A DNA stretch of 64,000 bases from Candidatus Uhrbacteria bacterium (GTDB taxonomy: Bacteria > Patescibacteriota > Patescibacteriia > UBA9934 > GWF2-40-263). The notes below the pieces were generated by a model. The model was given only the letters and a program-made list of their open reading frames with translations, did no database searches and was not told where the DNA came from. The stretch covers positions 56,940 through 120,939 of the forward strand of contig JAPLZK010000002.1 of assembly GCA_026395055.1 (NCBI GenBank), given 5' to 3'. Shown here piece after piece: positions 7,389 through 45,931 of the stretch; within the stretch, counting starts at the first letter, position 1, and each line of letters begins with the position of its first letter. The position numbers and the translations under genes are program-made.

Positions 7389-7455
7389 GGCGAGAATCTT
7401 CTCGCCCCTTTTTCAGAGATCAAGAGTGAATGGCATTTGTGGTTTCTGTCAGAAG
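7389..7455 (+). promoter_or_regulatory. Island junction unit (IJU), weaker stem
   Basis: GGCGAGAATCTTCTCGCC, CCTTTTTCAGAGA ... TTTCTGTCAGAAG. Confidence 0.6.
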
Positions 7456-7484
7456 TGTTTCGTTGTTTTGTACAGGAGGGAAAG

Positions 7485-13109: not shown

Positions 13110-13167
13110 GTTATCTTCATCGATCTTACGACGTTTGAAATTTCACGCAAGAGAAACTGTGGATAGA

Positions 13168-15057: not shown

Positions 15058-15058
15058 A

Positions 15059-15457: not shown

Positions 15458-15470
15458 AGTTACCGATATT

Positions 15471-16262: not shown

Positions 16263-16495
16263 ATCGAATGCGTAGGGGCGGGTCGTGACCCGCCCATCGA
16301 TCACAAAAAGTATATTTACGAAAAATATCGTAACAAATTTTTCGAACTTCGTCAATCAAATAAGCTAAAATTTATTGAACACCAAGTAAACATGTGAATT
16401 TTTATCGCATGAAATGTCTGTTTTGATTATTCTGTTGTTGTAAGTGATCGAGAGAGGTCACTTATGCCAAACGTTCCTTACAACAGAGGTGAATC

Positions 16496-16741
16496 ATGAA
16501 GGTTCTTACGGTGTTTCGTGGATCTCTTTGGTCTGATGTTTATCGCTGTAGTGCATGTCGCTCCACGATGCGTGTCGATCTGAAAGATCTTGAGCCGTTC
16601 TGGACTTCGCCAGCCTATGGTCCGCTTGATTGCGATTCGACATTGCATCTGTATTTCTATTGCGGACAGTGTCAGAAGAAAAATAAAATCGCGATCACAG
16701 AAAAATTGAAGACGTTGTTTCCAGAACCAAGTTCTTACTAA
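16496..16741 (+). CDS. MKVL zinc-ribbon paralog 1 (81 aa)
   Basis: MKVL N-terminus with CSAC...CGQC Cys pairs. RBS agaggtgaatc. Confidence 0.55.
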   Translation: MKVLTVFRGSLWSDVYRCSACRSTMRVDLKDLEPFWTSPAYGPLDCDSTLHLYFYCGQCQKKNKIAITEKLKTLFPEPSSY

Positions 16742-16753
16742 TGGGAGGACATC

Positions 16754-16987
16754 ATGAAAGTTTTGAAGAAAGGTCCTGATACGAATTGGGGCAAGGAGAT
16801 GCGGTGCACGGGGTACGGTCTCGGCACAACGGGCGGATGCGGTGCACTTTTGCTCGTGTCGCCTCGGGATGTGAAGAGTCACTACGACGATGGTGATACA
16901 TCCTATTGGTTTGTGTGTCCCGAGTGTGGTGCGCGGACCTATGTCACGAGTCGGACGTTTTCTCAACTGCAAGGAGGTGTCTCATGA
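16754..16987 (+). CDS. MKVL zinc-ribbon paralog 2 (77 aa)
   Basis: MKVLKKG...CTGYGLGTTGGCGALLLV...VCPECG. RBS gggagg. Confidence 0.6.
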   Translation: MKVLKKGPDTNWGKEMRCTGYGLGTTGGCGALLLVSPRDVKSHYDDGDTSYWFVCPECGARTYVTSRTFSQLQGGVS

Positions 16988-17244
16988 AGGTTCTTGAAAA
17001 GGGGCGGCCGCAAAAGGGTTGGAGTCATACGTACAAATGCACTGGTTCCGGAAATGGTGGTGGTGGGTGCGGAGCAAAGTTGCTTGTCGAGTTCAATGAT
17101 CTCTTCAAGACGCATCACTACGATTATGGTGGCGGACACGATGTCTACATCACCTTTTTGTGTGCTGAGTGTGGTGTTCTTACGGATATTGATTACTCCG
17201 GCCCCAACAGCAGCTCGATTCCCGATCACCGGAGGGTGTCATGA
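16984..17244 (+). CDS. MKVL zinc-ribbon paralog 3 (86 aa)
   Basis: MKVLEKG...CTGSGNGGGGCGAKLLV...LCAECG. ATGA overlap with paralog 2. Confidence 0.6.
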   Translation: MKVLEKGRPQKGWSHTYKCTGSGNGGGGCGAKLLVEFNDLFKTHHYDYGGGHDVYITFLCAECGVLTDIDYSGPNSSSIPDHRRVS

Positions 17245-23698: not shown

Positions 23699-23893
23699 AA
23701 CGCATTTCATTACCTTCCCCTTGCGAAGGGGGAGCATGAGGGGGTCTGTGGCTAAAAGCCTTGACATTCCGCTGTTATTTCCTTAAGGTTCGCCCTTGTT
23801 TTTCTTCCGGAATCGAACAATGTGTCCGCTTCGGGAAGGGAAACAAACACAAGGTTTGTCTCGCGCGTCCTTTTCACAACAGAGGGATCATCC

Positions 23894-25537
23894 ATGCACA
23901 CTTTGCCAGACGTTCGTACGCTTCCGCTTCCGTCCAAATTCCTTGTCGCGCTTCAGAAACTGATTCTTCGCACGCTTGAGATCTCTGGGTCAAAGATGGG
24001 GAATCAACTCGTCGAAGCGATTTTTGGAAAAACCATCACGTTTGGTCAACTCCAGATTCCTTCTATGCAAGATTGTGTTGAAGCGATTCGGGGCGAAGGT
24101 ATGACGCGTCCAAACATTCGCATTCGTGAACTCGTAGATCTCTTTGGAGCGATCAACCCAACAACGCCTGTGTGCGATGAGTGTGGTGAGTTTGCCATCA
24201 ATCAGATCGGTGGAAAGTTCATGGAACTTCAGCCCGACGAACTCTGTCCGTTTTGTTTGCAGGGCCACGTCAAGATCGAACCGATGATTCTGCGTACGGT
24301 GAACTGGGCAACTGGTGAACTCGTTGTGCCGAACATTGATTACGATTCACACTCGCGCATTGGTCTCGGCATTCCGCTGACTGATGAAGCGATTGTGAAG
24401 TGGGCGGATGGAATCAATATGGATTTGGATGCCGCACTCGTTGCGGCAAAGATTTCCATTCACGGGTTCCTTGCGTACCTGTATCTGCGTCAGCATGCAT
24501 TCGCACAGCTCGAAGACGTTCCGAAATTTCTGTTGAGTCCACGTGGATTCGATACGAAGTATTCGGAAGAGACACTCGATCGTCTCATACGTGAGGCATC
24601 GCAATTTCTGGATGTGCGTGAGATCACAAATCTTCCGCACAAGAAATTTCTTCCTGATGGTCGTCGTCGCGATGAGTTTACCTCGATCACAATCGGTGGT
24701 CGCGCGTATCTCATCGATGGCAAGATTGGTGAAGGAGATAAGTGCGATGTGTACGCTGGTCGATGGGATCACGAGCCGACGGAGCGTGTCGTCGTAAAGA
24801 TTGCACGCGTTGGCGTGAGTGATGATCGACTGCGTGCGGAGCGCACAAATCTTGAGTTGCTCGCGAAGAGTGATGCGCAAGGCGTGGAATTTTTTCGCCA
24901 ACTGCTTCCGGAAATCATTTCGTTCGGCAGCGTACAAGATCCAAACGGGCAATCACGCTCGTGTGTGGTCTATCGCGATCGAAACGGATTTGATTGGACC
25001 CTCGCTGACGTGATGCGTGCGTACCCACAAGGAGTGGAGCCACAGACGATGGTCTGGATGTTCAATCGAACACTCATGTTGCTTGCGTGGATGCATGAAC
25101 ATGACATTGTGCACGGTGCTCTCACACCTGGGCACATGCTCATTCATCCGAAGTATCACGGACTCATGTTTCTTGACCTCGCGTATGCGGGTCGAATCGG
25201 ACAGCCGCTTCCGGATGTCGAACCTTCACACGTGCTCTATCGTCCAAGTGCATCGCTTACCAACAATGTCTTTCACCCAATGATGGACATCTGTATGGCA
25301 GCGCGATGCATGATTGTGGTCATGGGAGGAAACCTCGAGCAAAAAACGATTCCGACAACTGTGCCGGATCCGCTCGCGGCGCTCTTGTCCAACCTCGCAT
25401 TTCCGGATGATAGCCATTTGTGGGGTTCGCGTTTTGCCAAGTTGGCCGATCAAGTCAAAGCAAGCTTTGGCGCGATTGCGGAAACGGTTTACGGCCCGAG
25501 GAAGTATCACGCATTTGAAATGCCACCCGTGGCATAG
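23894..25537 (+). CDS. Protein-kinase-fold protein, probable pseudokinase, with N-terminal CxxC...CxxC zinc-ribbon (547 aa)
   Basis: Gly-loop IGEGDKCDVY, VVVKIA Lys, ERTNLELL. Catalytic loop IVHGALTPGHMLI has Ala in place of the catalytic Asp. DFG position reads FLDLAYAG. RBS agaggga. Confidence 0.6.
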   Translation: MHTLPDVRTLPLPSKFLVALQKLILRTLEISGSKMGNQLVEAIFGKTITFGQLQIPSMQDCVEAIRGEGMTRPNIRIRELVDLFGAINPTTPVCDECGEFAINQIGGKFMELQPDELCPFCLQGHVKIEPMILRTVNWATGELVVPNIDYDSHSRIGLGIPLTDEAIVKWADGINMDLDAALVAAKISIHGFLAYLYLRQHAFAQLEDVPKFLLSPRGFDTKYSEETLDRLIREASQFLDVREITNLPHKKFLPDGRRRDEFTSITIGGRAYLIDGKIGEGDKCDVYAGRWDHEPTERVVVKIARVGVSDDRLRAERTNLELLAKSDAQGVEFFRQLLPEIISFGSVQDPNGQSRSCVVYRDRNGFDWTLADVMRAYPQGVEPQTMVWMFNRTLMLLAWMHEHDIVHGALTPGHMLIHPKYHGLMFLDLAYAGRIGQPLPDVEPSHVLYRPSASLTNNVFHPMMDICMAARCMIVVMGGNLEQKTIPTTVPDPLAALLSNLAFPDDSHLWGSRFAKLADQVKASFGAIAETVYGPRKYHAFEMPPVA

Positions 25538-27794: not shown

Positions 27795-27806
27795 GTTCTT
27801 TCTTCT

Positions 27807-27870
27807 GAGGTTCAACGGGAACCTCCTTTTTTACAAGTGATGATCACAGGGATGATTGCTTCTAGAAAAG
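27807..27870 (+). promoter_or_regulatory. Island junction unit
   Basis: GAGGTTC-aacg-GGAACCTC, CTTTTTTACA, tgatgatca/tgattgc stem, TAGAAAAG, then GGAGGAG RBS. Confidence 0.7.
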
Positions 27871-27891
27871 TTCTAGCTTCGGAGGAGTCCT

Positions 27892-31630: not shown

Positions 31631-32197
31631 TCAAGCGGCCATTGCCTCTGGGATGAGGCCGATCGCCATGCGCCCCAATTGGTGATCCGCGAGTGTTGCG
31701 CGCATAGCCTCTTCTCCTGCCATGGTTGCAAATGCTTGCTCGTGAAACACTTCTTGCGGGAGAATGCGTGCAAAGACCCTGCGTACATCTGGCGGAGTGG
31801 ACGCGTCTGCGACGATGACGCGGATCCTCTCGAGGCGCATGTGTTCAGCATGCGCCGCAACCGCCGCACCTGTCTCGAATGACTCGATCGCGCCGAGGGT
31901 TTTGTCCCAGTAGCGTTCATCTTTTTCGAGAACGGCGGGAGTGATGCCGCGCGCAATCAGCAGTTCACCAACCCAAGCGGCGTGTGCTTGTTCTTGGTCC
32001 GCGATCGTATAGAGCATGCGCGCCATTCGACTATCCGGATGCGCGTATCGCTCGGCAAATGCCAGGATGCGCACACTCGCCGTGACCTCACCGTGATACT
32101 GCTTCATGAGCCAGTCGATGAAGCGTGCTTCATCGTTCTTGATTTCGTTCCACCACTGATCTGAAGTCTGTTGCGTGTTTTGCATGACGTTCTCCAT
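31631..32197 (-). CDS. Ferritin-like/di-iron four-helix protein (188 aa)
   Basis: Paired E...EQAH / E...H helices (ADQEQAHAAW, AAHAEHMRLE, QEVFHEQAF). Family assignment tentative. Confidence 0.45.
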   Translation of the reverse strand: MENVMQNTQQTSDQWWNEIKNDEARFIDWLMKQYHGEVTASVRILAFAERYAHPDSRMARMLYTIADQEQAHAAWVGELLIARGITPAVLEKDERYWDKTLGAIESFETGAAVAAHAEHMRLERIRVIVADASTPPDVRRVFARILPQEVFHEQAFATMAGEEAMRATLADHQLGRMAIGLIPEAMAA

Positions 32198-32334: not shown

Positions 32335-33102
32335 ATGAAAACTCCGGAAGTATTTTTACAGGGACTCGGGCTTACACAAACAGAATCCACCATTTATCTT
32401 GCAGGACTTTCTCATAATGGAACAAACGCGCAAGCGCTCGCAAAACAAACCGGCATCAAACGTCCGACCGTTTATTATGCGCTTGAGACGCTCATGCAAA
32501 AAGGATTGGTGACCAAAAAAGGAGTGGGGAATCGACGTGTGTATTCCATGACGTCACCAGAGAATTTGAAGATGTTTGTTGATGCGCAAATTTCAGAAAT
32601 GCAAACAAAGAAAAATGCGTTGGACGGATTCGTGGAACAATTATTAAAACAACAAGGAGCTGGAGTTCCTTCTACGAGCGTGTTTCATTATGAAGGAATT
32701 GAAGGAGTGAAGATGGTCGTTGAAGAAGCACTGTATTGTAAGTCTCGCCACTGGGATATACTCGCGCCGAAGAAAAATTTCTTTTCTGAGTTCGACGCCG
32801 AGTATGCAAAATATTATCTTGATGCACGTAAGCGTCGAAAGATTACGTCACGATCGTTGTGGGAGAAAGTGAGCGGAAAGCAATCTGTTTCCAGGGAGGT
32901 GATTGCGGAACGCCAACCAAAATATTTGCCAGAAGTCATGTCTGGTCGTTTTCAATCCGTCATGATTTTGTTTGATGATAAAGTTGCGTTCATCTCTTCA
33001 TACAAATCTCTTTCGGCAATTTTGATTCAGTCCGACGAAATACACCAGTTTCTGCTATCGATGTTTGATGGACTTTGGTCTACGGCAGAGAAAATTGGAT
33101 AG
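32335..33102 (+). CDS. TrmB-family transcriptional regulator
   Basis: wHTH motif TESTIYLAGLSHNGTNAQALAKQTGIKRPTVYYALETLMQKGLV. Confidence 0.7.
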   Translation: MKTPEVFLQGLGLTQTESTIYLAGLSHNGTNAQALAKQTGIKRPTVYYALETLMQKGLVTKKGVGNRRVYSMTSPENLKMFVDAQISEMQTKKNALDGFVEQLLKQQGAGVPSTSVFHYEGIEGVKMVVEEALYCKSRHWDILAPKKNFFSEFDAEYAKYYLDARKRRKITSRSLWEKVSGKQSVSREVIAERQPKYLPEVMSGRFQSVMILFDDKVAFISSYKSLSAILIQSDEIHQFLLSMFDGLWSTAEKIG

Positions 33103-33203: not shown

Positions 33204-33329
33204 ACAAAACTTTCAAATTTGGATGCAATGCGCCGGGCTGGAGGGAAAAAATGTTTGAGTCGTAGATCGCCTACGGCGAAAACATTTTTTCCCGAAGCCC
33301 AAGCAGGGCGCCAAATTTGGAAGTTTTGT
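33204..33329 (-). repeat. tRNA-abutting long hairpin element, copy 1
   Basis: 19-nt arms acaaaactttcaaatttgg / ccaaatttggaagttttgt (1 mismatch) around a GC-rich core with an inner hairpin gggaaaaaatgttt/aaacattttttccc. Related to 63469-63595. Confidence 0.8.
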
Positions 33330-33403
33330 GGTGACCCCAAGGGGAATTGAACCCCTGTTACCAGGATGAAAACCTGATGTCCTAACCATTAGACGATGGG
33401 GCC
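33329..33403 (-). tRNA. tRNA-Glu (UUC), CCA encoded
   Basis: Cloverleaf folded by hand: acceptor GGCCCCA/TGGGGTC, anticodon loop TTTTCAT, T-loop GGGGTTCAATTCCCC. Confidence 0.9.
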
Positions 33404-33482: not shown

Positions 33483-33510
33483 ATAAAAAATCCACCAACA
33501 GTGTTGGTGG
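33483..33510 (-). terminator. Intrinsic terminator ending the AAA+/WD40 operon
   Basis: Minus-sense ccaccaaca-ctg-ttggtgg followed by ATTTTTTATT. Confidence 0.8.
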
Positions 33511-33517
33511 AGAAGAG

Positions 33518-34534
33518 TCAGACGGGAAGTTCTCGAATGAATGGGGTGTTACCGCGGCCAATGTTTTCGCTTCCGAAGTCGAAGATTTGTACGGGGTGTC
33601 CGCCCTGACCAAGGGATTCAAACGGTATTTTGTTTGAAGTGCTCGTTGCAAGGTAACGTCCATTTCCATAGAGGCACATGTGTTCAACCGGGTTGTTGAA
33701 TCCACTAATGTCACAGAGGATGTTACCGTCCGGGATTTGTACGACCAGAACGTAGTTTGGATTTTTTGTGGAAAGGAGAATTGTCTCATCATCAACGACG
33801 ACGAGATGTGAATATTCAACACGATGACTGTAACAAATTATGCGAGAGTTTCGTGTTGGTGCAATGAGCGTTATTTTATTCTTTTCAAGAAAAAGGAGTG
33901 TCCCGTTCGGTGTCCACCCACATTGAAAAATTCTTTCCGCATGTGTTTCCAGTTTTCCCGAACCCCATTTGGGATGAATGTCGTTCGAAGAATAGCCGAA
34001 CAATTGGTAGTCTCTCCACGATATTGCAATGAACGTTGGTGAATTTGGATTTGCAACGATTCCACTGAATGGCGTGTTGTTGCGCCTGCTTTCATAAACG
34101 ATTTTGTGCGTAGTGCCTGTCCATTCTAGAACACGTACGAGCCCTGTATCTGTCACAAACGCCACAAGATCATTTTGTAAAACAGTGAGGTGGGATTCAC
34201 CGTTTTTTGCAGATCGAAAGAGGTTGCTCGTTATCTCAATGTCAATATCGTTGCGTGTGAGGAACCAGATATTTCCATCCTTGGATGTGAGATATGCTCG
34301 CGTTCCATCCTTGGACCAGCGGAGGGAGGTGAAGTGATTTTCGACTGGATCAAATTTACCTAATGTCTTTCCAGTCTTCGGGTTGAAAAGACAAAGCGTG
34401 CTTTCGTTTTTGTTTTCTCCTCTTCCGATGCAAACAAACATTTGTTCGTCGGGGGAAATGGAAATGTGCGTGATGGGTGGATAATTTCCCTTTAAGGTGA
34501 AAAGGCGCAACGGTTCTCGAATAAGATCGGACAT
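33518..34534 (-). CDS. WD40-like beta-propeller paralog 1 (338 aa) with conserved C-terminal tail
   Basis: Repeated blade-like segments (ITHISISPDEQMFVC, LRWSKDGTRAY...). Tail IFDFGSENIGRGNTPFIRELPV. Confidence 0.65.
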   Translation of the reverse strand: MSDLIREPLRLFTLKGNYPPITHISISPDEQMFVCIGRGENKNESTLCLFNPKTGKTLGKFDPVENHFTSLRWSKDGTRAYLTSKDGNIWFLTRNDIDIEITSNLFRSAKNGESHLTVLQNDLVAFVTDTGLVRVLEWTGTTHKIVYESRRNNTPFSGIVANPNSPTFIAISWRDYQLFGYSSNDIHPKWGSGKLETHAERIFQCGWTPNGTLLFLEKNKITLIAPTRNSRIICYSHRVEYSHLVVVDDETILLSTKNPNYVLVVQIPDGNILCDISGFNNPVEHMCLYGNGRYLATSTSNKIPFESLGQGGHPVQIFDFGSENIGRGNTPFIRELPV

Positions 34535-34559
34535 GGGATCCCTCCGATGGAAACTTGAA

Positions 34560-34622
34560 CTTTCTCATGAACATTCATCGCGTTGATGACCGTTCATGTA
34601 AAAGGGCGATCACGTGATCGCC
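34560..34622 (-). promoter_or_regulatory. Island junction unit, V type
   Basis: Minus-sense GGCGATCACGTGATCGCC, CTTTTACA, TGAACGGTCATC-aacgc-GATGAATGTTCA, TGAGAAAG, then GGAGGG RBS. Confidence 0.8.
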
Positions 34623-34629
34623 GAGGATG

Positions 34630-35646
34630 TTAGACCGGGAGGTCTGTAATAAAGGGGGTGTTGTTGCGGCCCAGGTTCGCGCTCCCGAAGTCAAAAATCT
34701 GAGCAGAATGATCTCCGGCACTACGAGAGCAAAATGGAATGTGGTTTGCCGTGTTTGTCATGAGATATCGCCCAAGGTCAAACAAACACATACTTGTTAC
34801 CGGCTTTACGAATCCGCCCATGTCAAACAAGATTTTTCCATCCGGGATCTGTACGGCCAGGATGTAGTTTGGATTTTTCGTTGAGACAAGAATGGTTTCG
34901 TTATTCACGACAAGCAAATCTTCGAGCTCAATTCCGTGATTGATAACGATCCGTTTTTCGTCTCGACGATCAAGAACAATTCGATCTGGAAGAAGAAAAA
35001 TCCATGTTCTGTCTTGGGTCCACGCACCTTTTTGAATTCCATTTTCAAGAGGAGGATCTTGTCTCATGCAGATCCAGTTATTCCCCGTATCTCCAAACAG
35101 CTGAATATATGCACCACATGTCGAGAGAAACATGGATGGATTTGTGGAAGGAATAATTCCTGAGAATGAACAGTGCTGTTGTTCTTGGTGGACGACGACG
35201 TGTTTCTGTCCATCCCATGTCATTACACAGATGAGGCCAGATTGAGTGATGAATGCAATCAAATCATCCACTAAGATTGTCAGGTAGGTTGGACCGTTGA
35301 TATGAATGGGGTTTGTTCCGCGTGCATGCTCGTAGAGCAATTTCATTTGTTTAAATTTGTTTTCTTGCCATTCAAGAAAGAAAATTTTTCCGAGCGGTGT
35401 CGTTGCATACAAACGTTCGCCATTTTTTGACCATTGTAGTGTCTTAAATGAGAAACTTTGTATGTACGGTTTGCACAGTTCTTTTTCAGTTTGTGGGTTG
35501 AAAAAGTGAATGGCAGTGAAGTCGTGCTCTTGTTTTCCCATGCAAGCAAGTGTTTGCTCGTCTGGTGAGAGAGTAAGATGTGTAATCGGGTCACGATTAT
35601 TACTCAGCAACAAACGATGAGCAGGCTCTCGAATAAGATCGGACAT
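34630..35646 (-). CDS. WD40-like beta-propeller paralog 2 (338 aa)
   Basis: Same N-terminus (MSDLIREP) as paralog 1. Tail IFDFGSANLGRNNTPFITDLPV. Confidence 0.65.
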   Translation of the reverse strand: MSDLIREPAHRLLLSNNRDPITHLTLSPDEQTLACMGKQEHDFTAIHFFNPQTEKELCKPYIQSFSFKTLQWSKNGERLYATTPLGKIFFLEWQENKFKQMKLLYEHARGTNPIHINGPTYLTILVDDLIAFITQSGLICVMTWDGQKHVVVHQEQQHCSFSGIIPSTNPSMFLSTCGAYIQLFGDTGNNWICMRQDPPLENGIQKGAWTQDRTWIFLLPDRIVLDRRDEKRIVINHGIELEDLLVVNNETILVSTKNPNYILAVQIPDGKILFDMGGFVKPVTSMCLFDLGRYLMTNTANHIPFCSRSAGDHSAQIFDFGSANLGRNNTPFITDLPV

Positions 35647-35671
35647 GGGATCCCTCCGATGGAAACTTGAA

Positions 35672-35734
35672 CTTTCTCATGAACATTCATCGCGTTGATA
35701 ATCGTTCGTGTAAAAGGGCGATCACGTGATCGCC
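35672..35734 (-). promoter_or_regulatory. Island junction unit, V type
   Basis: Nearly identical to 34560-34622, including the leader and RBS. Confidence 0.8.
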
Positions 35735-35741
35735 GAGGATG

Positions 35742-36725
35742 TTAGACCGGGAGGTCTGGAATGAGCGCGGTTGGTTTGCGGCCAAGGTTTGGGCCGCCGA
35801 AGTCAAGGACGCGCGGCCACTTTTCATAGTCTTGTCGTACGGCGCGTGCTCGCTCTTTGCTTGCGGCAATGAGGTAGCGATTTTCTTCGCCATAGACACA
35901 GACGGAGGAAATGCCGCCTGCGAATCCGCCGATCTGTTTTTGCACAACCATCTCAGGAAACTGAGCGATCACGAGTCCTGTTGTTGTTCCGACCGCGAAT
36001 GTTTTGTCATCTACTTTTGTTAGACAAAGAACGGGCTGTTCAAGTTTCAGGAATGGAGCGTCTTTTACAGAACGCACAGATCCGTCTTCGCATCCGGTGA
36101 GAAGTGTTTCTCCCATCCAGAGAAGACTGTTCACTTGTGCTTCTTCTTTTCGTTCACGTGCATCGCGAACAAGTCGTCGTTGCAGAGCTTGTTCGTAGTC
36201 TGTGGCGTCGTAGACCATGATTCCGTTTTTCACAGAGCTTGCAGCAAGATGTGTGCCGTCTTCATTGAATACAAGCATGTTGCAATCACACTTTTGATCT
36301 CCAAGATCGACATTTGCTTCGTTGCGTACATGTATGACGTTGTTGTACATGCTTGCAATGAGATTTTTTGCGGAAACAGCCGCGCTTGGAATAGCCGTGT
36401 CTTGTGGAGAAAAGACTCGAGCGCTTTTCCATGCTTGTGTCGGGTCGTCCGGTCGTGGCCAGGATAGGGTTGATGCTCCATCACTTGTGATGAGACGATC
36501 ACCTTTTTTGTTCCAGGCAACGGTATGAACATCACTTTGATGACCATCCAGAATTTTGACGACTTCACCCGTTTCCGGATTCCAAATATGGACTCGTGGA
36601 TCTCCACGATTACCCGCGCCGGCAATCAGCTTTTGATCAGGCGACAGCGCAAGTTGCCACACGTCGTGGTTGTGTCCACCAAGGACGCGCGCAATTTTCG
36701 GATCTGGGATCTCTTGGTCTGCCAT
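35742..36725 (-). CDS. WD40 repeat beta-propeller paralog 3 (327 aa)
   Basis: Canonical WD signatures (GGHNHDVWQLALSPDQKLIAGAG...VHIWN, LDGHQSDVHTVAWN). Tail VLDFGGPNLGRKPTALIPDLPV. Confidence 0.75.
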   Translation of the reverse strand: MADQEIPDPKIARVLGGHNHDVWQLALSPDQKLIAGAGNRGDPRVHIWNPETGEVVKILDGHQSDVHTVAWNKKGDRLITSDGASTLSWPRPDDPTQAWKSARVFSPQDTAIPSAAVSAKNLIASMYNNVIHVRNEANVDLGDQKCDCNMLVFNEDGTHLAASSVKNGIMVYDATDYEQALQRRLVRDARERKEEAQVNSLLWMGETLLTGCEDGSVRSVKDAPFLKLEQPVLCLTKVDDKTFAVGTTTGLVIAQFPEMVVQKQIGGFAGGISSVCVYGEENRYLIAASKERARAVRQDYEKWPRVLDFGGPNLGRKPTALIPDLPV

Positions 36726-36750
36726 GAAGCACCTCTATTGAAAGAAAGAA

Positions 36751-36812
36751 ACTTTCTCACGAACGTTCATCACTCGATGACGATTCGTGTAAAAGGGCGA
36801 TCACGTGATCGC
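36751..36812 (-). promoter_or_regulatory. Island junction unit, V type
   Basis: GGCGATCACGTGATCGCC, CTTTTACA, CGAATCGTCATC-gagt-GATGAACGTTCG, TGAGAAAG. Confidence 0.8.
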
Positions 36813-36820
36813 CAAGCGTG

Positions 36821-37900
36821 CTAGACCGGAAGTTCTCCAATGAGCGGAATGGGCATACGACCAAGGTTTGGATTTCCAAAGTCGTAGATAGCGGGAGAGA
36901 ATTTCATATAACCCGTATCGTCTTGCGTGTGCGAGTCGCTCGTAATCATGAAGCGACCATTTCCGTACAGGAGAATGGAACGCAGATCCTGAAACCCTTT
37001 GAGGGAGTAGAGGATTTTCATGTCCGGCAGTCGCACAATCCGCAGTTCGTCCTTCCCGTTTTTTCGAATACTCAGGATGAGTGTCTGTGCATCCACAAGA
37101 CAAAATGTGTTGAGATGATCAATGTCTGTGCGTGCGTCATAGAGGTTGTTTGCGATATTCGAATGAATACCAATCTTCCCTCCATCCGATGCAGAAACAA
37201 GGACGTCCTCGGTGAGCCAATCAATTTCTTCGATCGGTCCATTATCTGTTTTGAAAGCGGGGCCGGCCTGTTCCAGTTCGCTTTCAGAAGCAGAGAGGAT
37301 GCACAACTTTGCCCCTATGCTTACAGCAAGTTTGTTGCCATTCGGAGAAAAGGTAAGGAGTCGGATTCCTCCATCGTATTTTTTTCGATGAAGGAGTTTT
37401 GGTCGCGAACCCTTTGTAAGGCGGAAGATCCAGATGTGGTTATTTTGGGCTGCAGCAAGAAAGCCTGATGAAGAAACAGCGACGGTCGTAAACTTATTTG
37501 TCGATGTGCCGCCGTATCCATTGTGTTCAGACGTCGTGTTTTGGACTCGTTTTATTACCCATTCTCCACGACCAGGTTTTTGCCAAAACCATCTGGACTC
37601 TTGCCAAGAAATAACATCTCCGGAAAGGTCTGCAAGAAAAACGGTCTGTCCATGTGTGGACCAAGCGATTCCATCTTTTGCAACAGACGCTGATCGCTCT
37701 TCGTTTTTGTGCAGATCCAATCGTCGCAGAATAGTGCCCGTTGCAACATCCCACATGTGAACTTCTTCATCTTCTCCTGCGCCAATCAGACGTTGTTCGT
37801 CCGGAGAGAGGGCAAGGTGATTGAGAACAGTCGTTCTGCCTTCAAGTCGACGGATCAGTTTTGGTGCGGGGATTTTGATGTCTTCGGTGACGGGTTCCAT
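36821..37900 (-). CDS. WD40-like beta-propeller paralog 4 (359 aa)
   Basis: LNHLALSPDEQRLIGAGEDEEVHMWD. Tail IYDFGNPNLGRMPIPLIGELPV. Start at MEPVTEDI after the aagagg RBS. Confidence 0.7.
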   Translation of the reverse strand: MEPVTEDIKIPAPKLIRRLEGRTTVLNHLALSPDEQRLIGAGEDEEVHMWDVATGTILRRLDLHKNEERSASVAKDGIAWSTHGQTVFLADLSGDVISWQESRWFWQKPGRGEWVIKRVQNTTSEHNGYGGTSTNKFTTVAVSSSGFLAAAQNNHIWIFRLTKGSRPKLLHRKKYDGGIRLLTFSPNGNKLAVSIGAKLCILSASESELEQAGPAFKTDNGPIEEIDWLTEDVLVSASDGGKIGIHSNIANNLYDARTDIDHLNTFCLVDAQTLILSIRKNGKDELRIVRLPDMKILYSLKGFQDLRSILLYGNGRFMITSDSHTQDDTGYMKFSPAIYDFGNPNLGRMPIPLIGELPV

Positions 37901-37930
37901 GCGTAAGACCTCTTGGGTGAAAGGAACGGA

Positions 37931-37993
37931 CTTTCTCATGAACGTTCATCGCGCTGATGATCGTTCGTGTAAAAGGGCGATCACGTGATCGCC
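37931..37993 (-). promoter_or_regulatory. Island junction unit, V type
   Basis: GGCGATCACGTGATCGCC, CTTTTACA, CGAACGATCATC-agcgc-GATGAACGTTCA, TGAGAAAG. Confidence 0.8.
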
Positions 37994-38006
37994 GAGAGGA
38001 AGGAAC

Positions 38007-40721
38007 TTATGCTTCACCAACATTACGGTCGATGAGAGCGGGATTGATTTCTGGAATAGGATCGGAACCTGCCGGCAAACCACGGAGCATGCGAAGCGCA
38101 CGCTCGATTTCATCCTTCACATTTTCTGGGAGAAAAAGTTTGGACGAGCAGTTTTGAATGGCAAGCAGGGTCATGCGTGCAATCTCTACCACAGATGCGG
38201 AAGGAAGATAATCTTCGATCGCACCCGTGAGAGCTTTTTCATTGATGTTTCCACCGCCGAATTGGTCTGCACGGCGAACCAAGACTTCAATGTCCGCACC
38301 GGTCAGTCCGTCCGTCTTTTCCGCAAACGTTCCGAAGTCGGTCAGAGGAGACTCGAATCCGTAACGCTTGATCATGACGGGGAACAGTCGGGTGCGTGTT
38401 TCCTGGTCTGGCATCAGAATCGGGATGCGATCGTCGGTTCGGCCCGCGCGCTTGAGGGCGCCGTCGAGCAGATCCGGACGATTAGTTGCACTCACGACAA
38501 AGATGCGTCCGCGGATGGTTGGATCCGAAAGGAACTGCATCATCGCCTGACGAACGCGATTGCTCACGCCCGAGTCGCCTTGATATCCATCGCGTCCATT
38601 GTCTTCTTGATCCACTTCGTCACGAAACCAGACGAGTGGTGCAAGCGCACGCAGGGCGATGAACAATTGTTCCATCTTTTGTTCCGTCTCTCCGACCCAC
38701 TTGGAACGGATCGGACGGGTTTTCACAAGGAGCACACCCGCTTCATGTGCAAGTGCGGTTGCAAGCGCGCTTTTGCCCGTCCCCGGAGGTCCCATCAAAA
38801 GGCAACCCATCGGGACACGACGTGCGTCTCCTGCGAGCATGGCGTCGCGCACGCGGATGAAATATTCTTTCACGCCATCGAGTCCGGCAACACCATCGAA
38901 TCCATACGGAGGCCGCTCGATCTCAAGGAGGTCGCCGTATGTTTTGGTGAGAAGAGCGATGCGACGTGATGTGACTTCCACGGCCGACAGGTCTTGTGTG
39001 TTCGCGCTCGCTTCCCGAAAGAGGGTTGTGAGATCGCGATACCCAAGGTTCCCTGTGAGTTGCGTCAGTGACCGAATGCCGATGGTTGGTGTGGGGAACG
39101 GATTGCGCGCGGTCATGTTTTGCATCATGACACGAATGCTTTCCGCTTCTTTTTCCAACTGCTTGATGTCTGGTGTGGATGGATGATCGTGAGAGGCTTG
39201 TAGATCTTGTTTGGTGCTCTCGCAAGCTTTCTTGTATTTGTTGATTTCCGCACACACCGCTTGTGTTTGCTTTTTGATCTGTTCTTGGAGCGCATCCATT
39301 TCCGCTTGGATTTGTTGCACCACCGTATTTTTGTTCTGCTGAATGCCATCAAACCGCTTGCGAGATTCCGCAAGGGTCGTTTCAAGTCGACTCCGTTCGC
39401 CACGCTGAAGCGTGTATTCGAATTGTGTGTCGAGCATGATCCGTTTTGGGGAATCACTTTTGTGCAGACGACAGACGAGTCCGCCGCTCGCAGACCAGTT
39501 GAAGTACACCGGAAGACCTTGTGCATTCAACCACGGATTATCATCCGTGAGCTTTGTCAGACGAACATCTCCGTCCGCATCTGCATCACTCATGACACGC
39601 GTTGTCTGAATTTTTCCATCCGTTGGACTTCTGAGCGTGATCAAATCATTTGTCAGAAGGGTTTGCCAACGCGAGGAGTTCAGAAATTGCGGTTGCAGTT
39701 CCGGATCTTCACGCAATCGATGTTCGAGTTGCGAGATCTGTGTTCGCAAGGACGTGATTTCTTGCTCGAGCGCGGACGCACCACTTGCAAGGTGTGCGGT
39801 CATGCGTGCTTGCGCACTTTCGAGGGATTTCTGTCGCGCTTGGATATCAACGCTTTCTTGAACAAGCGCGGCTCCTTGTCGATTGAGTTCGGCAAGTTGT
39901 TCGTCTTGGAGAAGAATTTGTTGATGGATCCGTTGCTGTTCTGCCTGACGCAAAACGTTCAGACGTGCTTCGAGTCTATTGAGTTCTTCTTGCTTCATGC
40001 TCGTCTCATCTGTGAGAGATGAAATGAAACGCAGACGCTCTTCTTCATCGGGTGGCATGATCGTGATGGGCACGATCGGACTTTCCGGACGACGAAGTCG
40101 TTCGGGAAGCGCACTCAACGTTCGAGCACTCATGAGCATCAGATGTCCTGCACGTGCGAAACGATCATTTTCTGCGATGCGCATGACAAGCAGGGCAATG
40201 CGTTCCGTCGCGCGGTCCGTTCCACCGAGGGCACCTGAGCACACGGCGTCAAAGTCCGGCATGATCGCAATGCATCGTCCGACTTTTGCTTTCTTGTCCG
40301 ACGCAACCGATGTTGCCTGGTCAAAAACTTTGTGCATGAGACCAAGGGCTTCCAGTGGTTCTGTCGGAAGAGGCATTTCTGATTGAAGGGCTAGCGCGGC
40401 TTTTTCTGCAGGAGTCAACGCTCCTGCTGGAGGAGCTTCTCCATTTGCGAGCGCGCGAAAGCGCTGTTCCATGGAAGGTTTTTTCTCATCCGTGGATTTC
40501 GGGAACCGAAACCCAAGAGCGGGATCAAAGAACCACAGAATATCGATTTCTTGCACGTGCAAGCGTCGTGAAAGGGCTTTGTGCCACGTATCCAGTCGAT
40601 CAACCGGATCTGTTTCTGCGCTCCGTTCGAGCAAAGGAAATCCATCACTCACGGAACCAGTGAACAAAAACGCGCGAGTACCTTCTTTGAGCCGTTTTTC
40701 AAATTCTTGAATCCAACGCAT
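38007..40721 (-). CDS. Large AAA+ ATPase (904 aa): degenerate N-domain, long coiled coil, C-terminal classic AAA module
   Basis: Walker A LLMGPPGTGKSALA, Walker B VWFRDEVDQ, SATNRPDLLDGALKRAGRTD (second region of homology). About 250 aa of heptad-rich sequence in the middle. Start at MRWIQEF after AGGAGG. Confidence 0.8.
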   Translation of the reverse strand: MRWIQEFEKRLKEGTRAFLFTGSVSDGFPLLERSAETDPVDRLDTWHKALSRRLHVQEIDILWFFDPALGFRFPKSTDEKKPSMEQRFRALANGEAPPAGALTPAEKAALALQSEMPLPTEPLEALGLMHKVFDQATSVASDKKAKVGRCIAIMPDFDAVCSGALGGTDRATERIALLVMRIAENDRFARAGHLMLMSARTLSALPERLRRPESPIVPITIMPPDEEERLRFISSLTDETSMKQEELNRLEARLNVLRQAEQQRIHQQILLQDEQLAELNRQGAALVQESVDIQARQKSLESAQARMTAHLASGASALEQEITSLRTQISQLEHRLREDPELQPQFLNSSRWQTLLTNDLITLRSPTDGKIQTTRVMSDADADGDVRLTKLTDDNPWLNAQGLPVYFNWSASGGLVCRLHKSDSPKRIMLDTQFEYTLQRGERSRLETTLAESRKRFDGIQQNKNTVVQQIQAEMDALQEQIKKQTQAVCAEINKYKKACESTKQDLQASHDHPSTPDIKQLEKEAESIRVMMQNMTARNPFPTPTIGIRSLTQLTGNLGYRDLTTLFREASANTQDLSAVEVTSRRIALLTKTYGDLLEIERPPYGFDGVAGLDGVKEYFIRVRDAMLAGDARRVPMGCLLMGPPGTGKSALATALAHEAGVLLVKTRPIRSKWVGETEQKMEQLFIALRALAPLVWFRDEVDQEDNGRDGYQGDSGVSNRVRQAMMQFLSDPTIRGRIFVVSATNRPDLLDGALKRAGRTDDRIPILMPDQETRTRLFPVMIKRYGFESPLTDFGTFAEKTDGLTGADIEVLVRRADQFGGGNINEKALTGAIEDYLPSASVVEIARMTLLAIQNCSSKLFLPENVKDEIERALRMLRGLPAGSDPIPEINPALIDRNVGEA

Positions 40722-40745
40722 CAGACACCTCCTGTAAGGAACAAA

Positions 40746-40807
40746 CTTTCTCATGAGCATTCATCACTCGATGATCGCTCGTGTAAAAGGGCGATCATGT
40801 GATCGCC
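40746..40807 (-). promoter_or_regulatory. Island junction unit, V type (palindrome variant CATG)
   Basis: GGCGATCACATGATCGCC, CTTTTACA, CGAGCGATCATC-gagt-GATGAATGCTCA, TGAGAAAG, then AGGAGG. Confidence 0.8.
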
Positions 40808-40814
40808 AAGAAGA

Positions 40815-41414
40815 CTAGAGACTTTTGGCGAGCAAGAGGATTGCTTCGCCGAGTTCGTAGGGCATGATGCCAACGATTTGTGTGCCGGTTTTATCAAACG
40901 TGATCGAGACCTTGGCGGTTTTGAGATCCACTTCCGAATAGCGATCCGTTAGACGGTGAATGACCTGATTCGATGATCCTCGCAGAGGAAGACCAAGCTT
41001 CACAAGGCGTGTTGCAAATGGCCCGTCGATGAGAACGTCGAGTTGATCAAGCAGGTTGCGTGCGCCGTTTGGTGCGCGCAGAGACTCGATGTGCCGACGT
41101 GTATAGCCGGACCACGACAACGTCGAGAGTCCGAGTGCTCGCGCTTCTTTTGCAATGTGCGCGAGCGCGAGCGCTTGCTCGAACGGTTCACCACCAGAAA
41201 AACTGATGCCCTCAATTCCATGTTCCTCTTTTGCCAGACGTACCTGCGTAAGAATGTCTTGCACACGTGATGGCTGGAGGGGAAGAGATGAAATGAGTTC
41301 TGGTGTGCCGCACCCTTTGCAATTGATGGAGCACCCGCGTACCCAGAGACACGCGCGCTTGCCCGGTCCCATGGATTCTGTGCATGGATCAAACACACCG
41401 ACGTTGACGTTCAT
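40815..41414 (-). CDS. Small radical-SAM activase of the NrdG/PflA-activating-enzyme type (199 aa)
   Basis: GPGKRACLWVRGCSINCKGCGTPE (CX3CX2C right after the GPG motif). GISFSGGEPF SAM-binding motif. Confidence 0.7.
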   Translation of the reverse strand: MNVNVGVFDPCTESMGPGKRACLWVRGCSINCKGCGTPELISSLPLQPSRVQDILTQVRLAKEEHGIEGISFSGGEPFEQALALAHIAKEARALGLSTLSWSGYTRRHIESLRAPNGARNLLDQLDVLIDGPFATRLVKLGLPLRGSSNQVIHRLTDRYSEVDLKTAKVSITFDKTGTQIVGIMPYELGEAILLLAKSL

Positions 41415-41416
41415 GC

Positions 41417-41632
41417 TTACGATCCAGTCTTCAGCTTGTCGCGCGTTGCTTCCGGAATGGGTTGGGCAGGCGCGCGAGGTGCTTCTGAAATTTCGAGTGG
41501 TGCTGCCCCAAGGAGTGACAACACGGCAAGCATCTTGTCGTGTGCGGAATCGCATTCACGAGCGGGAGCTTCAATGTCGACTTTCAGTTTGCCGTCCTTT
41601 GTGCGAACGATCTTTACGAGTGAGCGACTCAT
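41417..41632 (-). CDS. DUF2997-like small protein (71 aa)
   Basis: VKIVRTKDGKLKVDIEAPARECDSAHDKMLAVLSLLG matches my recollection of the DUF2997 pattern (I..DG.v.v...G..C......LG). 4-nt overlap upstream and a 2-nt gap downstream. Confidence 0.45.
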   Translation of the reverse strand: MSRSLVKIVRTKDGKLKVDIEAPARECDSAHDKMLAVLSLLGAAPLEISEAPRAPAQPIPEATRDKLKTGS

Positions 41633-42150
41633 TGCAGCACCTCGTCGATGACAAAGTTGACGACCGTCGTTCCTGCATCGTCGGTTTTGCAATTCACATT
41701 TTTCCCGACAACCTGCGCCATGGTTTCAAGAGAGCGAATTTGACGCCGCTCTTCGAAATACGCCTTCCATTGCTTTTGACGTTCGGACAATCCGCTTTCG
41801 CCATGCTCGAATCGTGTGGAGACGAAACTAAGCTTTCCTTTGTTGTTCACAACGCCAAACCGTTCTACGTCTGTCGCAAGAACCCCCAGGACTTCTCCCT
41901 TCGGTTTTTCGATCGGACTGCCATATTGGTTGTTTTGCACTTCAAAGGTTTTCGTCAGCTGCATGTTGAAATGTGCTGCCGTGTCGTCCAAGGCCTTTTT
42001 TGCAATGTCCGCGCGGATCTCGGCCCAGTCAATCTTCTTGAGCTGATTCGCGAGTGCTCGGTTCTTGGCGGCAATTTTCTCGATTGCCTCATTGATATCT
42101 TGGCCTTGTTCCAAAGCCTCTTGCCTTGCGGCAATCCAGTGACGTGACAT
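41629..42150 (-). CDS. DUF1257-like protein with helical N-terminal extension (173 aa)
   Basis: The C-terminal ~100 aa (HFNMQLTKTF...ERFGVVNNKGKLSFVSTRF...VGKNVNCKTDDAGTTVVNFV) resemble the Ycf35/DUF1257 layout, from memory. RBS gaagagg. Confidence 0.4.
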   Translation of the reverse strand: MSRHWIAARQEALEQGQDINEAIEKIAAKNRALANQLKKIDWAEIRADIAKKALDDTAAHFNMQLTKTFEVQNNQYGSPIEKPKGEVLGVLATDVERFGVVNNKGKLSFVSTRFEHGESGLSERQKQWKAYFEERRQIRSLETMAQVVGKNVNCKTDDAGTTVVNFVIDEVLQ

Positions 42151-42242
42151 GGGTACCTCTTCCAAAGGGGGAAATTTCCTCTGGTTTCTGCCGCTTTTTT
42201 GCAAACGCGGAAGGAATCAATGGAAATGGAATTCGATCGGAA

Positions 42243-42271
42243 ACATTAGGGAAAAATGATGAGTTTGTCAA
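42243..42271 (-). promoter_or_regulatory. Sigma70-like promoter of the eight-gene operon
   Basis: Minus-sense TTGACA, 17-nt spacer, TAATGT. Confidence 0.6.
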
Positions 42272-44803: not shown

Positions 44804-45931
44804 ATGTCCTACGCAGAAGCAGGAGGGTATCGAGCGGGTGGTGCACCCGTAAGAGCCGCCGCAACAAAATTTGATGTCATGTATCCGGCAAACGGAGATT
44901 CCGAAGCGGCTGCATTATATTTGCGTGAAATTTATCGTGGACGTGATGTTCAGCCAAAGATTGATGAGTTTGAAAAAGTTCCACTTGCAAAACGAACGGA
45001 AGATAAACAGTTAGAACGTCAACTAGAAATGAAGTACAAGATGTCCATGGGAAGAGAGACGACGGCAACAGAAGAAGGCGGAGTTCTTGAGCAATTTTTG
45101 ATTTGTGAATCAGATCGCAACGATTGGCTCGGTGGATCTGTTTTTCGCACAACAAAGTTTGATGACTTTAAAGGAATTGATGCTGTTTTGGAGTGGGATG
45201 AAGCGGATCGATTCGGTCGCTATCCACGTTTGCTCGTTGATTACACGACCTCACAGTTGCCAGAGCGTGTCGCACAAAAGAAAGAAAAATTAGTGCACGG
45301 AGGACGTGTTGAATATTTTCGTTCGCCATTTGAGCTTGATGAAGATGATGTCGAAAAAGAATTTTCGCTTTATGACATGCCTGTTGTTATATTAGGAATT
45401 GAAAAGACATTCATGCCAAAAATCGCTGGGATGGCAAAGTCCCAAGAAAAAGGACGCGTTATCCGTGATGGAAAAAAAGTGGTTGATATTAAACAGCAAG
45501 CGTTTAGCGAACATCCATTGCAGATCTTGTTACTTGAACAAGCGATTGCACAGGTGGACGTTCAGGTGCGTGCTGCCGCAGCCCGACTCTTGAACTTAGA
45601 AAAAACGATCGGAGATAGGGAGGCAGCAAGTACGTTGGATGCACTTCGTTTTCGAATTGGTGGTGGTCGCGTTACGGCAAGTGAGATTATTGATATGCTT
45701 AAACGTATAGAGCCAAATCTGCATGCATATCAAGAAAAAAATAAGGACAATGATGTGGTAAGAAGCCATGTAACCTCTACGATTCCTAAATGGGAAAATG
45801 TCGCAGCGGTTTATCAACTTCTCACAGAAAAAATGGGAGACGTTCAGGCAAAAAAAAATGCCGACCAATTACTGGCGGCACGAGCGTGGCGAAATGCCTC
45901 TGTTACACACAAGCTTCTTACACGTGTGTAG
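44804..45931 (+). CDS. Hypothetical protein (375 aa)
   Basis: Long AT-rich ORF starting 1 nt after the tsaE stop. No family recognised. Confidence 0.6.
   Translation: MSYAEAGGYRAGGAPVRAAATKFDVMYPANGDSEAAALYLREIYRGRDVQPKIDEFEKVPLAKRTEDKQLERQLEMKYKMSMGRETTATEEGGVLEQFLICESDRNDWLGGSVFRTTKFDDFKGIDAVLEWDEADRFGRYPRLLVDYTTSQLPERVAQKKEKLVHGGRVEYFRSPFELDEDDVEKEFSLYDMPVVILGIEKTFMPKIAGMAKSQEKGRVIRDGKKVVDIKQQAFSEHPLQILLLEQAIAQVDVQVRAAAARLLNLEKTIGDREAASTLDALRFRIGGGRVTASEIIDMLKRIEPNLHAYQEKNKDNDVVRSHVTSTIPKWENVAAVYQLLTEKMGDVQAKKNADQLLAARAWRNASVTHKLLTRV

Follow-up and report, generated by a model that had tools for sequence, protein, structure and literature searches.

A block of eight co-directional genes in a Candidatus Uhrbacteria bacterium encodes what we tentatively read as a tail-directed protein-processing machine. 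The block lies within the 64,000-nucleotide stretch of contig JAPLZK010000002.1 that was analyzed here (positions 56,940 to 120,939; hereafter the window, numbered from its first letter). It encodes two small proteins, g1 and g2, a radical S-adenosylmethionine (radical-SAM) enzyme of the glycyl-radical-activase type, an AAA+ protein, and four WD40 propellers that share a motif near their C-termini. Judging from sequence comparisons, the propellers may be clients or docking partners marked by this motif. To the reading as a whole we give a probability of about 0.4. The components come from known superfamilies, but the system as a whole matches no characterized kind, and within a wider family of cassettes the form with WD40 proteins is both rare and lineage-specific. 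The eight genes, from the upstream end, are:

41629..42150, minus strand: g1, 173 residues, in the position that DUF1257 occupies elsewhere
41417..41632, minus strand: g2, 71 residues, DUF2997-like, with an invariant Cys; 4-nucleotide overlap with g1
40815..41414, minus strand: radical-SAM enzyme of the NrdG/PflA type, 199 residues; 2-nucleotide gap from g2
38007..40721, minus strand: AAA+ protein, 904 residues, with Pfam and NCBIfam matches
36821..37939, minus strand: WD1, WD40 propeller by Pfam WD40 match and AlphaFold2 (AF2) model; tail motif 36821-36883
35742..36725, minus strand: WD2, WD40 propeller (Pfam, 62 bits); tail motif 35742-35804
34630..35646, minus strand: WD3, WD40-like propeller by paralogy; tail motif 34630-34692
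33518..34534, minus strand: WD4, WD40 propeller; tail motif 33518-33580

The genes were read from a six-frame listing of open reading frames (ORFs), and independent gene calls on near-identical Logan contigs gave identical products of 173, 71, 199, and 904 residues and a matching tsaD-gpsA flank. An earlier note on this DNA had described eight co-directional genes beside tRNA-Glu, the first three tightly coupled, and both the layout and the coupling were borne out.

To place the system, we scanned the GTDB species genomes with an alignment of its radical-SAM enzymes and obtained 454 relatives; the locus counts that follow come from the 80 best loci, which we cite by number (L016 and so on) together with the other contigs compared. 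About 50 of the 80 combine an AAA protein, DUF1257, DUF2997, the radical-SAM enzyme, and ComEA-like helix-hairpin-helix (HHH) proteins, an arrangement that we call the canonical cassette. Clustering of the neighboring ORFs recovered the following recurrent families:

radical-SAM enzyme: 68 loci
AAA protein of ~540 residues: 58 loci
protein of ~70 residues: 54 loci, passing the DUF2997 cut-off (45.8 and 42.3 bits)
protein "X" of ~150-185 residues: 49 loci, 12 of 40 matching DUF1257 (best E 3.8e-8)
protein of ~260 residues: 63 copies in 51 loci, with a ComEA-like HHH_3 domain

No recurrent family other than DUF1257 was found among the 40 X-type proteins tested. The AAA and radical-SAM genes occur together in 58 of the 68 loci with the radical-SAM cluster, across very distant phyla. 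Hosts include Bacillaceae, Methanobacteria, Melainabacteria, actinomycetes, and myxobacteria, and the cassette is also found on plasmids of Bacillus cereus, Paenarthrobacter, Paenibacillus polymyxa, Rhodococcus, and Treponema. Two gene orders are common, AAA-X-DUF2997-HHH-radical-SAM in Bacillaceae and Methanobacteria and HHH-radical-SAM-AAA-X-DUF2997 in Melainabacteria/Gastranaerophilales. A third variant (L025 28-6526; L036, L075, L085, L093) contains a superfamily 1 (SF1) helicase that is MkoA-like, proteins of ~565 and ~675 residues, DUF2997, a DUF1257-like protein, and the radical-SAM enzyme. In Gastranaerophilales/Melainabacteria (L033, L041, L045, L047, L057, L061, L083; ~13000-17200) the cassette is fixed between lptF/G and the ATP-synthase operon, the latter assigned from gene sizes and sequences.

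The earlier note knew of no description that joined the AAA-DUF1257-DUF2997 triad to a radical-SAM activase and propellers. The triad with the radical-SAM enzyme proved to be widespread, and the form with WD40 propellers is rare; no description of either was found, only generic RefSeq names ("AAA family ATPase", "helix-hairpin-helix domain-containing protein", "DUF1257/DUF2997 domain-containing protein", and, for the radical-SAM enzyme, "4Fe-4S single cluster domain-containing protein"). In the literature we found no paper linking DUF2997, DUF1257, or Ycf46 with a radical-SAM enzyme, and none of the curated families or PADLOC defence models covers the system. A search of the BFVD viral folds returned no match at E<0.07. 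The same note's statement that AAA+DUF1257+DUF2997 triads occur in cyanobacteria was confirmed, including on cyanobacterial plasmids, two of which carry the triad without the radical-SAM gene.

The feature that ties the HHH proteins of the canonical cassette to its AAA protein is a short C-terminal tail, R-x-Phi-D-Phi-COOH. The canonical AAA proteins end in ...SRGGR[TAS][LIV]D[FVL] in 49 of 58 cases, and 59 of the 63 HHH proteins end in [GE]-R-x-[IVL]-D-[FLIY]; a further neighbor family, c21, carries the tail in 4 of 5 members, as opposed to 1 of 642 other ORFs. Tail-bearing examples lie in the canonical cassettes among loci L016-L093 (for instance L033 10566-12206 and 7887-8660). The tail is absent from the AAA proteins of the two cyanobacterial plasmid triads that have no radical-SAM gene, and it was found in none of the 108 full-length homologues of ~550 residues closest to the AAA module of the window, of which two contexts were examined (Acidobacteria), both without a radical-SAM gene. 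This distribution indicates that the tail marks proteins of the radical-SAM-containing system. The putative clients belong to different families (HHH, WD40, and others), and their genes are present in 1 to 8 copies. In the P. polymyxa variant two membrane proteins end in RVIHF and RVIRL. In a bacterium from sheep rumen (L035 4900-9942), eight HHH paralogs with the tail stand in tandem immediately ahead of the radical-SAM gene. On a Treponema succinifaciens plasmid (L181 3369-7593), the radical-SAM enzyme and a tail-bearing AAA protein (..RKLEM) precede a 683-residue product with the annotation phage baseplate assembly protein V.

The four WD40 proteins of the window, 21-30% identical to WD1, are paralogs, as the earlier note had proposed; the Pfam matches, the paralog alignment, and the AF2 model of WD1 agree on this. 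WD1, WD2, and WD4 exceed the cut-off of PF00400, while WD3 gives only weak beta-propeller matches in Pfam yet is a paralog; an exact look-up of its sequence returned no match. Conservation among the four is strongest at the C-terminus, DFGxxN[LI]GRxxxxxIxxLPV. When ten WD40 clients from four lineages were compared, the best 12-column window was this tail motif, with 61% mean pairwise identity versus 27% overall. The consensus reads Phi-D-F-[GD]-x-x-[NGDQ]-[LI]-G-[RST], followed by 11-15 residues, and all ten have the [LI]-G glycine. The AF2 model of WD1 is an all-beta propeller with a predicted local distance difference test (pLDDT) score of 70.5, in which residues 1-18 and 361-372 score below 50. 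Its last strand comprises residues 350-353, the DFGNPNLGR block has a pLDDT of 75, and the final 12 residues have one of 33. In the longest WD1 ORF, codons 1-13 (37901-37939, ATGAGAAAGT...) belong to a repeated intergenic element described below; because these codons lie inside the element and the first 18 residues are modeled with low confidence, translation probably begins at M14 (37900).

Relatives of the window's own type are rare. Only 2 of the 80 best loci in the GTDB scan carry g1 and g2, both from Patescibacteria. The order g1-g2-radical-SAM is kept in six divergent lineages of the Patescibacteria type (the window with L094, L095 with L009, L015, L004, L014, and L008) and in every g1 relative whose contig extends beyond the gene. 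What is attached to this core differs. L095, a 117-kb contig, repeats the plan of the window (g1-g2-radical-SAM-AAA of ~880 residues-WD40-WD40); L015 has WD40-AAA-WD40-WD40, L004 a WD40 gene directly after the radical-SAM gene, and L008 an orthologous AAA gene of 705 codons. In L014 (Candidatus Kaiserbacteria) an AAA gene and four paralogs of another family (222-224 residues) precede g1-g2-radical-SAM. Three divergently transcribed ORFs upstream in L008 (909-4189, minus strand) have similar ends, ..RFLAVRK, ..RFLAVRL, and ..GVLAVKP. Many metagenome contigs (L003, L009-L012, L096) stop ~40-300 nucleotides past the radical-SAM gene, some inside the first hairpin element; these ends fit assembly breaks that downstream repeats and paralogs would cause.

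The earlier note's assignment of the third gene to the NrdG-type activases was upheld. The protein matches Fer4_12 (1e-27) and Radical_SAM in Pfam, and its best curated family is NrdG (TIGR02491; 84.7 bits, E 6e-24, near full length), under the equivalog cut-off of 126.1 bits; PflA and other activase models rank next, all far under their cut-offs. The sole solved relative that a sequence-profile search found is the pyruvate formate-lyase activating enzyme (PFL-AE, 3C8F; E 1.4e-7), with which both the cluster motif and the MGPGKR loop align, the latter with DGPGIR. Its motifs are the MGPGKR loop, the CSINCKGC cluster, GGEP, and RGSSNQ, and the combination that defines glycyl-radical activases (CX3CX2C, GGE, and a GPGxR N-terminal to the cluster) is present as MGPGKRACLWVRGCSINCKGC and SGGEPF. 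The 199 residues contain only Fer4_12 and Radical_SAM, with no SPASM/twitch domain and negligible matches to PqqE and NirJ. Neither the large ORFs scanned in the window nor the conserved neighbors in the cassette loci include a cognate glycyl-radical enzyme (NrdD, PflB). The orthologs in g1-g2 systems are 52-71% identical, and each follows g1-g2.

For the fourth gene, the sequence comparisons support a Ycf46/CDC48-type AAA+ protein whose first AAA domain is degenerate and which carries a coiled-coil insertion:

residues 1-237, nucleotides 40011-40721, minus strand: degenerate AAA domain lacking a P-loop (hhalign against an AAA module, E 5.9e-5)
residues 238-551, nucleotides 39069-40010, minus strand: coiled-coil insert, missing from the 705-residue ortholog in L008
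residues 552-904, nucleotides 38010-39068, minus strand: active classic-clade module with GPPGTGKS, DEVD, a KWVGE pore loop, and RAGRTDDR

The classic AAA module, which the earlier note had recognized from GPPGTGKS, DEVD, and the second region of homology, is backed by Pfam (PF00004, 1.6e-26; AAA_lid_3), by NCBIfam (CDC48, 2.4e-35; the PAN and FtsH models also match), and by 620 homologues at E<1e-30, which carry the JGI name SpoVK/Ycf46/Vps4 family. Its Walker, pore-loop, and Arg-finger motifs are intact. When g1 and the N-terminal 630 residues of the AAA+ protein were used in word-indexed searches of proteins, near-identical Logan sequences alone came back. The closest AAA homologues of ~550 residues, from Acidobacteria (L186 4514-7656, L187 4493-7647), overlap by 4 nucleotides with an upstream gene for a PQQ-type beta-propeller of ~500 residues, so the pairing of AAA and propeller recurs; a cNMP-binding/FHA gene comes next, and a radical-SAM gene is absent. 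The related AAA proteins that we noticed in a Streptococcus satellite phage and other phages are stand-alone genes and uninformative.

The two small proteins fared differently. Direct searches of g1 and g2 against Pfam, NCBIfam, and PADLOC gave no matches, and neither PF06868 for g1 nor PF11211 for g2 appeared at E<=10. A HMMER search of 1.84 billion representative proteins with both returned 31 proteins at E<=1e-3, about 25 of them g1-like (160-184 residues) and three g2-like. The assignment of g2 to DUF2997 holds at the level of profile-profile comparison even though a direct Pfam match is absent: hhalign aligns g2 with the Pfam-verified DUF2997 neighbors of canonical cassettes over a 38-residue core (E 6e-6, probability 85%). 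The DUF2997 neighbors in L016, L039, and L025 pass the PF11211 cut-off, a joint hidden Markov model finds one DUF2997-type ORF in 73 of 94 loci, and in g1-g2 loci g2 always lies between g1 and the radical-SAM gene. The DUF1257/Ycf35-like C-terminus that had been proposed for g1 was not supported by sequence. None of 26 aligned g1-family members matches PF06868 at E<=1, and hhalign against the X-protein alignment (in which 12 of 40 hit PF06868) gives a probability of 2.4% and P 0.02 over 68 co-linear C-terminal columns only; other DUF1257-containing alignments give 0.4% and 1.4%. A sequence-profile search of the PDB with g1 returned nothing meaningful. What g1 and the X/DUF1257-like proteins have in common is position, size, a near-invariant N-terminal Met-Ser, and the weak co-linear C-terminal alignment. 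On the Paenibacillus polymyxa plasmid pPPM1a the order DUF1257-DUF2997-radical-SAM (RefSeq names) equals that of g1-g2-radical-SAM.

Read together as a tail-directed machine, these parts suggest a division of labor. The radical-SAM enzyme would abstract a hydrogen atom from a client protein, as its nearest characterized relatives do; those activases act on a glycine ~25-30 residues from the C-terminus of their substrate. The enzyme retains their GPGxR peptide-binding loop, and its likeliest site would be the invariant tail glycine. The KWVGE pore loops of the AAA+ protein may grip the flexible tail, whether for presentation, remodeling, or recycling of the client, and g1 and g2 could act as adaptor or scaffold. 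A narrower version holds that the radical-SAM enzyme forms a protein radical at the invariant tag glycine or modifies the backbone there, that the AAA+ protein threads the tag and the DUF1257-like/DUF2997 pair presents it, and that in the canonical cassette the targets are the tagged HHH proteins and the AAA protein itself. As a joint claim we think this quite improbable. The glycine-radical idea within it is weak because the tail is unlike RVxG[FYW] and Glu often replaces Gly in the canonical tails; a glycyl-radical loop in the tail was dropped as a candidate for the same reasons. An encapsulin cargo-loading peptide was considered as well and discarded, there being no shell gene.

Several observations weigh against a tail-directed machine. 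The WD40 tail and the canonical tail cannot be aligned with each other, and the AAA+ protein of the window itself has no tail. Either Gly or Glu precedes the Arg of the canonical tail, so that a glycine target is not universal. The client family of L014 differs and ends without Gly-Arg, and L008 has no obvious downstream client. Since the DFG motif is partly predicted to be ordered, it could be structural, and the sharing of tails among tandem paralogs stems partly from common descent.

The foremost alternative is a conflict or anti-phage system, in which the WD40 or DNA-binding HHH proteins would be sensors of invaders, the AAA+ protein a switch, and the radical-SAM enzyme the effector, with the tails serving only to assemble the complex; the enzyme might make a modified nucleotide, as viperins do, or damage a target. 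The distribution fits this. Relatives of g1 are few among the 1.84 billion proteins and g1/g2 carriers few among the best loci, the genomic context differs in each Patescibacterial lineage, the canonical cassette is carried by plasmids of Bacillus, Paenibacillus, Arthrobacter, Rhodococcus, and Treponema, and the putative sensor arrays are variable and expanded. The third variant replaces the AAA protein with an SF1 helicase resembling MkoA of Mokosh, a Geminocystis plasmid triad stands beside RloB and zeta-toxin genes, and related AAA proteins occur in phages, the Streptococcus satellite phage among them. Other findings speak against it. PADLOC-DB 2.0 yields generic AAA (IetA, TRIP13) and helicase (MkoA) matches and a weak pVip only, and g1, g2, WD40, X, DUF2997, and HHH proteins have no significant match in it (the best, WD1, at E 0.007). 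The radical-SAM enzyme is activase-like, not viperin-like, and nucleases, toxins, and other usual effectors are absent. In many Gastranaerophilales species the cassette keeps a single place ahead of the ATP-synthase operon, which looks like vertical inheritance. Ycf46 and Ycf35 homologues, moreover, are core genes of cyanobacteria and plastids, which also weighs against a role in conflict. On balance we consider an anti-phage function somewhat unlikely.

A second alternative concerns the unity of the locus and turns on its transcription signals, which together with the adjoining tRNA gene are:

42243..42271, minus strand: promoter-like site TTGACA-17-TAATGT, upstream of g1, read from the sequence
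33491..33511, minus strand: intrinsic-terminator-like hairpin with T-run after WD4, 9-bp stem, from a terminator scan
33329-33403, minus strand: tRNA-Glu, adjoining the cassette

One sigma70-like promoter and one strong terminator had been proposed to bracket the block. The terminator after the last gene was recovered, with its 9-bp stem and T-run at 33511..33491. The promoter-like site has a perfect -35 but only 3/6 matches in the -10, and a consensus scan did not list it because this -10 falls under the threshold; it overlaps a divergent promoter-like site of gpsA. The picture of a single bracketed unit is complicated by five internal hairpin elements, which follow the radical-SAM gene, the AAA gene, and WD1 to WD3:

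40736..40814, minus strand: copy 1, between radical-SAM and AAA genes; palindrome 40790-40807; covariance model R1, 95.6 bits
37921..38000, minus strand: copy 2, between AAA and WD1; palindrome 37976-37993
36742..36820, minus strand: copy 3, between WD1 and WD2; palindrome 36796-36813
35662..35741, minus strand: copy 4, between WD2 and WD3; palindrome 35717-35734
34550..34629, minus strand: copy 5, between WD3 and WD4; palindrome 34605-34622; the sole copy flagged by the terminator scan

Each copy, ~80 nucleotides long, is a terminator-like GC hairpin with CTTTT and a second hairpin: an 18-nucleotide palindrome GGCGATCACGTGATCGCC (5 matches versus 0.09 expected), then CTTTTACACGA, the second hairpin, GAGAAAG, and a ribosome-binding site. 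Pairing in the second hairpin is kept through four compensatory changes in a relative of 90% nucleotide identity. Rfam has no family for the element. A covariance model built from the operon copies also matches intergenic sites on the plus strand of the window, at 27800-27880 before purA (41 bits) and at 6244-6327, 6955-7031, 7382-7467, 3211-3292, and 1905-1988, as well as equivalent places in L095, L004, and L096. In L095, repeated two-hairpin elements stand before AAA and client genes (10620, 13377, 14488). The genome-wide form is GGCGAG-loop-CTCGCC or GGCGATCACGTGATCGCC, then CTTTTCCAGAGA or CTTTTACACGA, a variable second hairpin, GAAAG, and a ribosome-binding site. Analogous two-hairpin repeats of other sequences occur in L014 (6139-6234, 7641-7736, 9147-9242) and L015 (10589, 11749, 14569, 15727; ~104 nucleotides each), likewise before AAA and client genes, and short motifs common to Patescibacterial intergenic elements include CTTTTCCACGAG and GTTTGTTCTTTCAAA. 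The idea that the element is specific to the operon was rejected once the covariance model showed it genome-wide; it is therefore general inter-cistronic punctuation, terminator-like with a leader hairpin, and not part of the system. Integron attC sites were rejected too: there is no integrase, the cassettes are paralogous, and copies of the element separate housekeeping genes as well.

These signals bear on whether the block comprises two adjacent, independent modules made as several transcripts, an AAA and propeller pair acting as chaperone and client beside a g1-g2-radical-SAM unit whose substrate is encoded elsewhere. The five hairpin-plus-CTTTT elements, whose like is found between unrelated genes elsewhere in the window, would suit such a division. 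So would the AAA-propeller pairs of Acidobacteria, which have no radical-SAM gene, the AAA relatives with yet other neighbors, and L004, where, in the available part of the contig, the WD40 gene directly follows the radical-SAM gene with no AAA gene between. Against this, AAA and radical-SAM genes co-occur in the great majority of cassette loci (58/68) and in very distant phyla, the gene order is tight and co-directional in every lineage, and the canonical AAA carries its tail where radical-SAM and HHH genes are present and lacks it in the plasmid AAAs without radical-SAM and in the 108 homologues (two contexts checked). We regard two separate modules as unlikely. Least of all do we expect the radical-SAM enzyme to be a housekeeping NrdG that activates an anaerobic ribonucleotide reductase encoded at another site, with unrelated neighbors: NrdG is its best family match, over nearly the whole model, but a score under the equivalog cut-off, the lack of NrdD among the ten largest other window ORFs scanned (and the FtsH-like one) and of any conserved NrdD-sized family beside the radical-SAM gene in cassette loci, and the invariant position after g1-g2 of enzymes 52-71% identical make that role very improbable.

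The block had been described as GC-richer than its flanks, which is true only of g1 to AAA (GC fraction 0.50-0.55); at 0.44-0.48 the WD40 genes are like the flanks, and values of 0.55-0.59 occur in other parts of the window. Horizontal transfer, once considered from GC content, was dropped because the GC content is not distinctive. Just past tRNA-Glu lie genes for a TrmB-family regulator (32335-33102, plus strand) and a rubrerythrin-like protein (31631-32197, minus strand). Two further window ORFs, of 571 residues (23822-25537, plus strand) and 375 residues (44804-45931, plus strand), have no Pfam match at E<=1e-5.

If the narrower version with a modified tag glycine were true, the tagged proteins would form a class of radical-modified proteins not seen before, the system would be a tag-directed one of a new kind, and the Ycf46/Ycf35/DUF2997 genes of cyanobacteria and plastids would gain their first biochemical role. 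If a tail-directed machine is indeed encoded here, a five-component cassette present in hundreds of species (Bacillaceae, methanogens, gut Melainabacteria, actinomycetes, myxobacteria, and candidate-phyla bacteria, and on plasmids) would have escaped description. Should the locus instead serve defence, it would add a new defence system, one whose effector is unusual. The hypothesis of a tail-directed machine lends itself to direct tests, given the tails, their invariant glycine, and the compact enzyme.

Overall, no characterized system combines an enzyme of the glycyl-radical-activase type, an unfoldase, and C-terminally tagged proteins, and each known system resembles only a part of the cassette. 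The glycyl-radical activases (NrdG-NrdD, PflA-PflB, GrcA/YfiD) share with it a radical-SAM enzyme of ~200 residues with CX3CX2C, GGE, and a GPGxR peptide-binding loop, and a putative target in a conserved glycine-containing motif near the protein C-terminus. Their substrates have the glycyl-radical-enzyme fold and RVxG[FYW], whereas the candidate substrates here are beta-propellers with N-[LI]-G-[RST] in their tails (ComEA-like HHH proteins in the canonical cassette), and the known activases need neither an AAA+ protein nor two small partners.

The Ycf46/Ycf35/DUF2997 sets of cyanobacteria and plastids have in common with the window the AAA family, a DUF2997-like small protein, and a ~170-residue protein with an invariant N-terminal Met-Ser in the DUF1257 position. 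They differ in that the cyanobacterial plasmid triads have no radical-SAM enzyme, AAA tail, or client array, g1 fails the sequence tests for DUF1257, and the window AAA, at 904 residues, is extended by a coiled coil and a second, degenerate AAA domain. Among tail-docking systems, the tail of SspB docks on ClpX, the GQYL/HbYX ends of Mpa and Bpa dock on the 20S proteasome, and the red-type Rubisco activase CbbX pulls the C-terminal tail of RbcL. ClpX-SspB, Mpa/Bpa-20S, and CbbX resemble the cassette in their classic-clade AAA+ with threading pore loops, and several proteins with one short C-terminal motif recall SspB, Mpa, Bpa, and RbcL; in the canonical cassette the ATPase is among the proteins with the motif. 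Unlike these systems, the cassette encodes no protease or ring-shaped partner and has a radical-SAM enzyme. The radical-SAM peptide maturases MftC-MftB-MftA and PqqE-PqqD-PqqA likewise pair a radical-SAM enzyme with a small accessory protein and a substrate with a conserved C-terminal sequence, and in both the maturases and the cassette substrate paralogs lie beside the enzyme. The cassette, in contrast to MftC and PqqE, has an AAA+ protein and no detected SPASM/twitch domain or RRE fold. Its putative substrates are folded proteins of full size with variable bodies and a constant tail, the opposite of the leader-and-core logic of MftA and PqqA.

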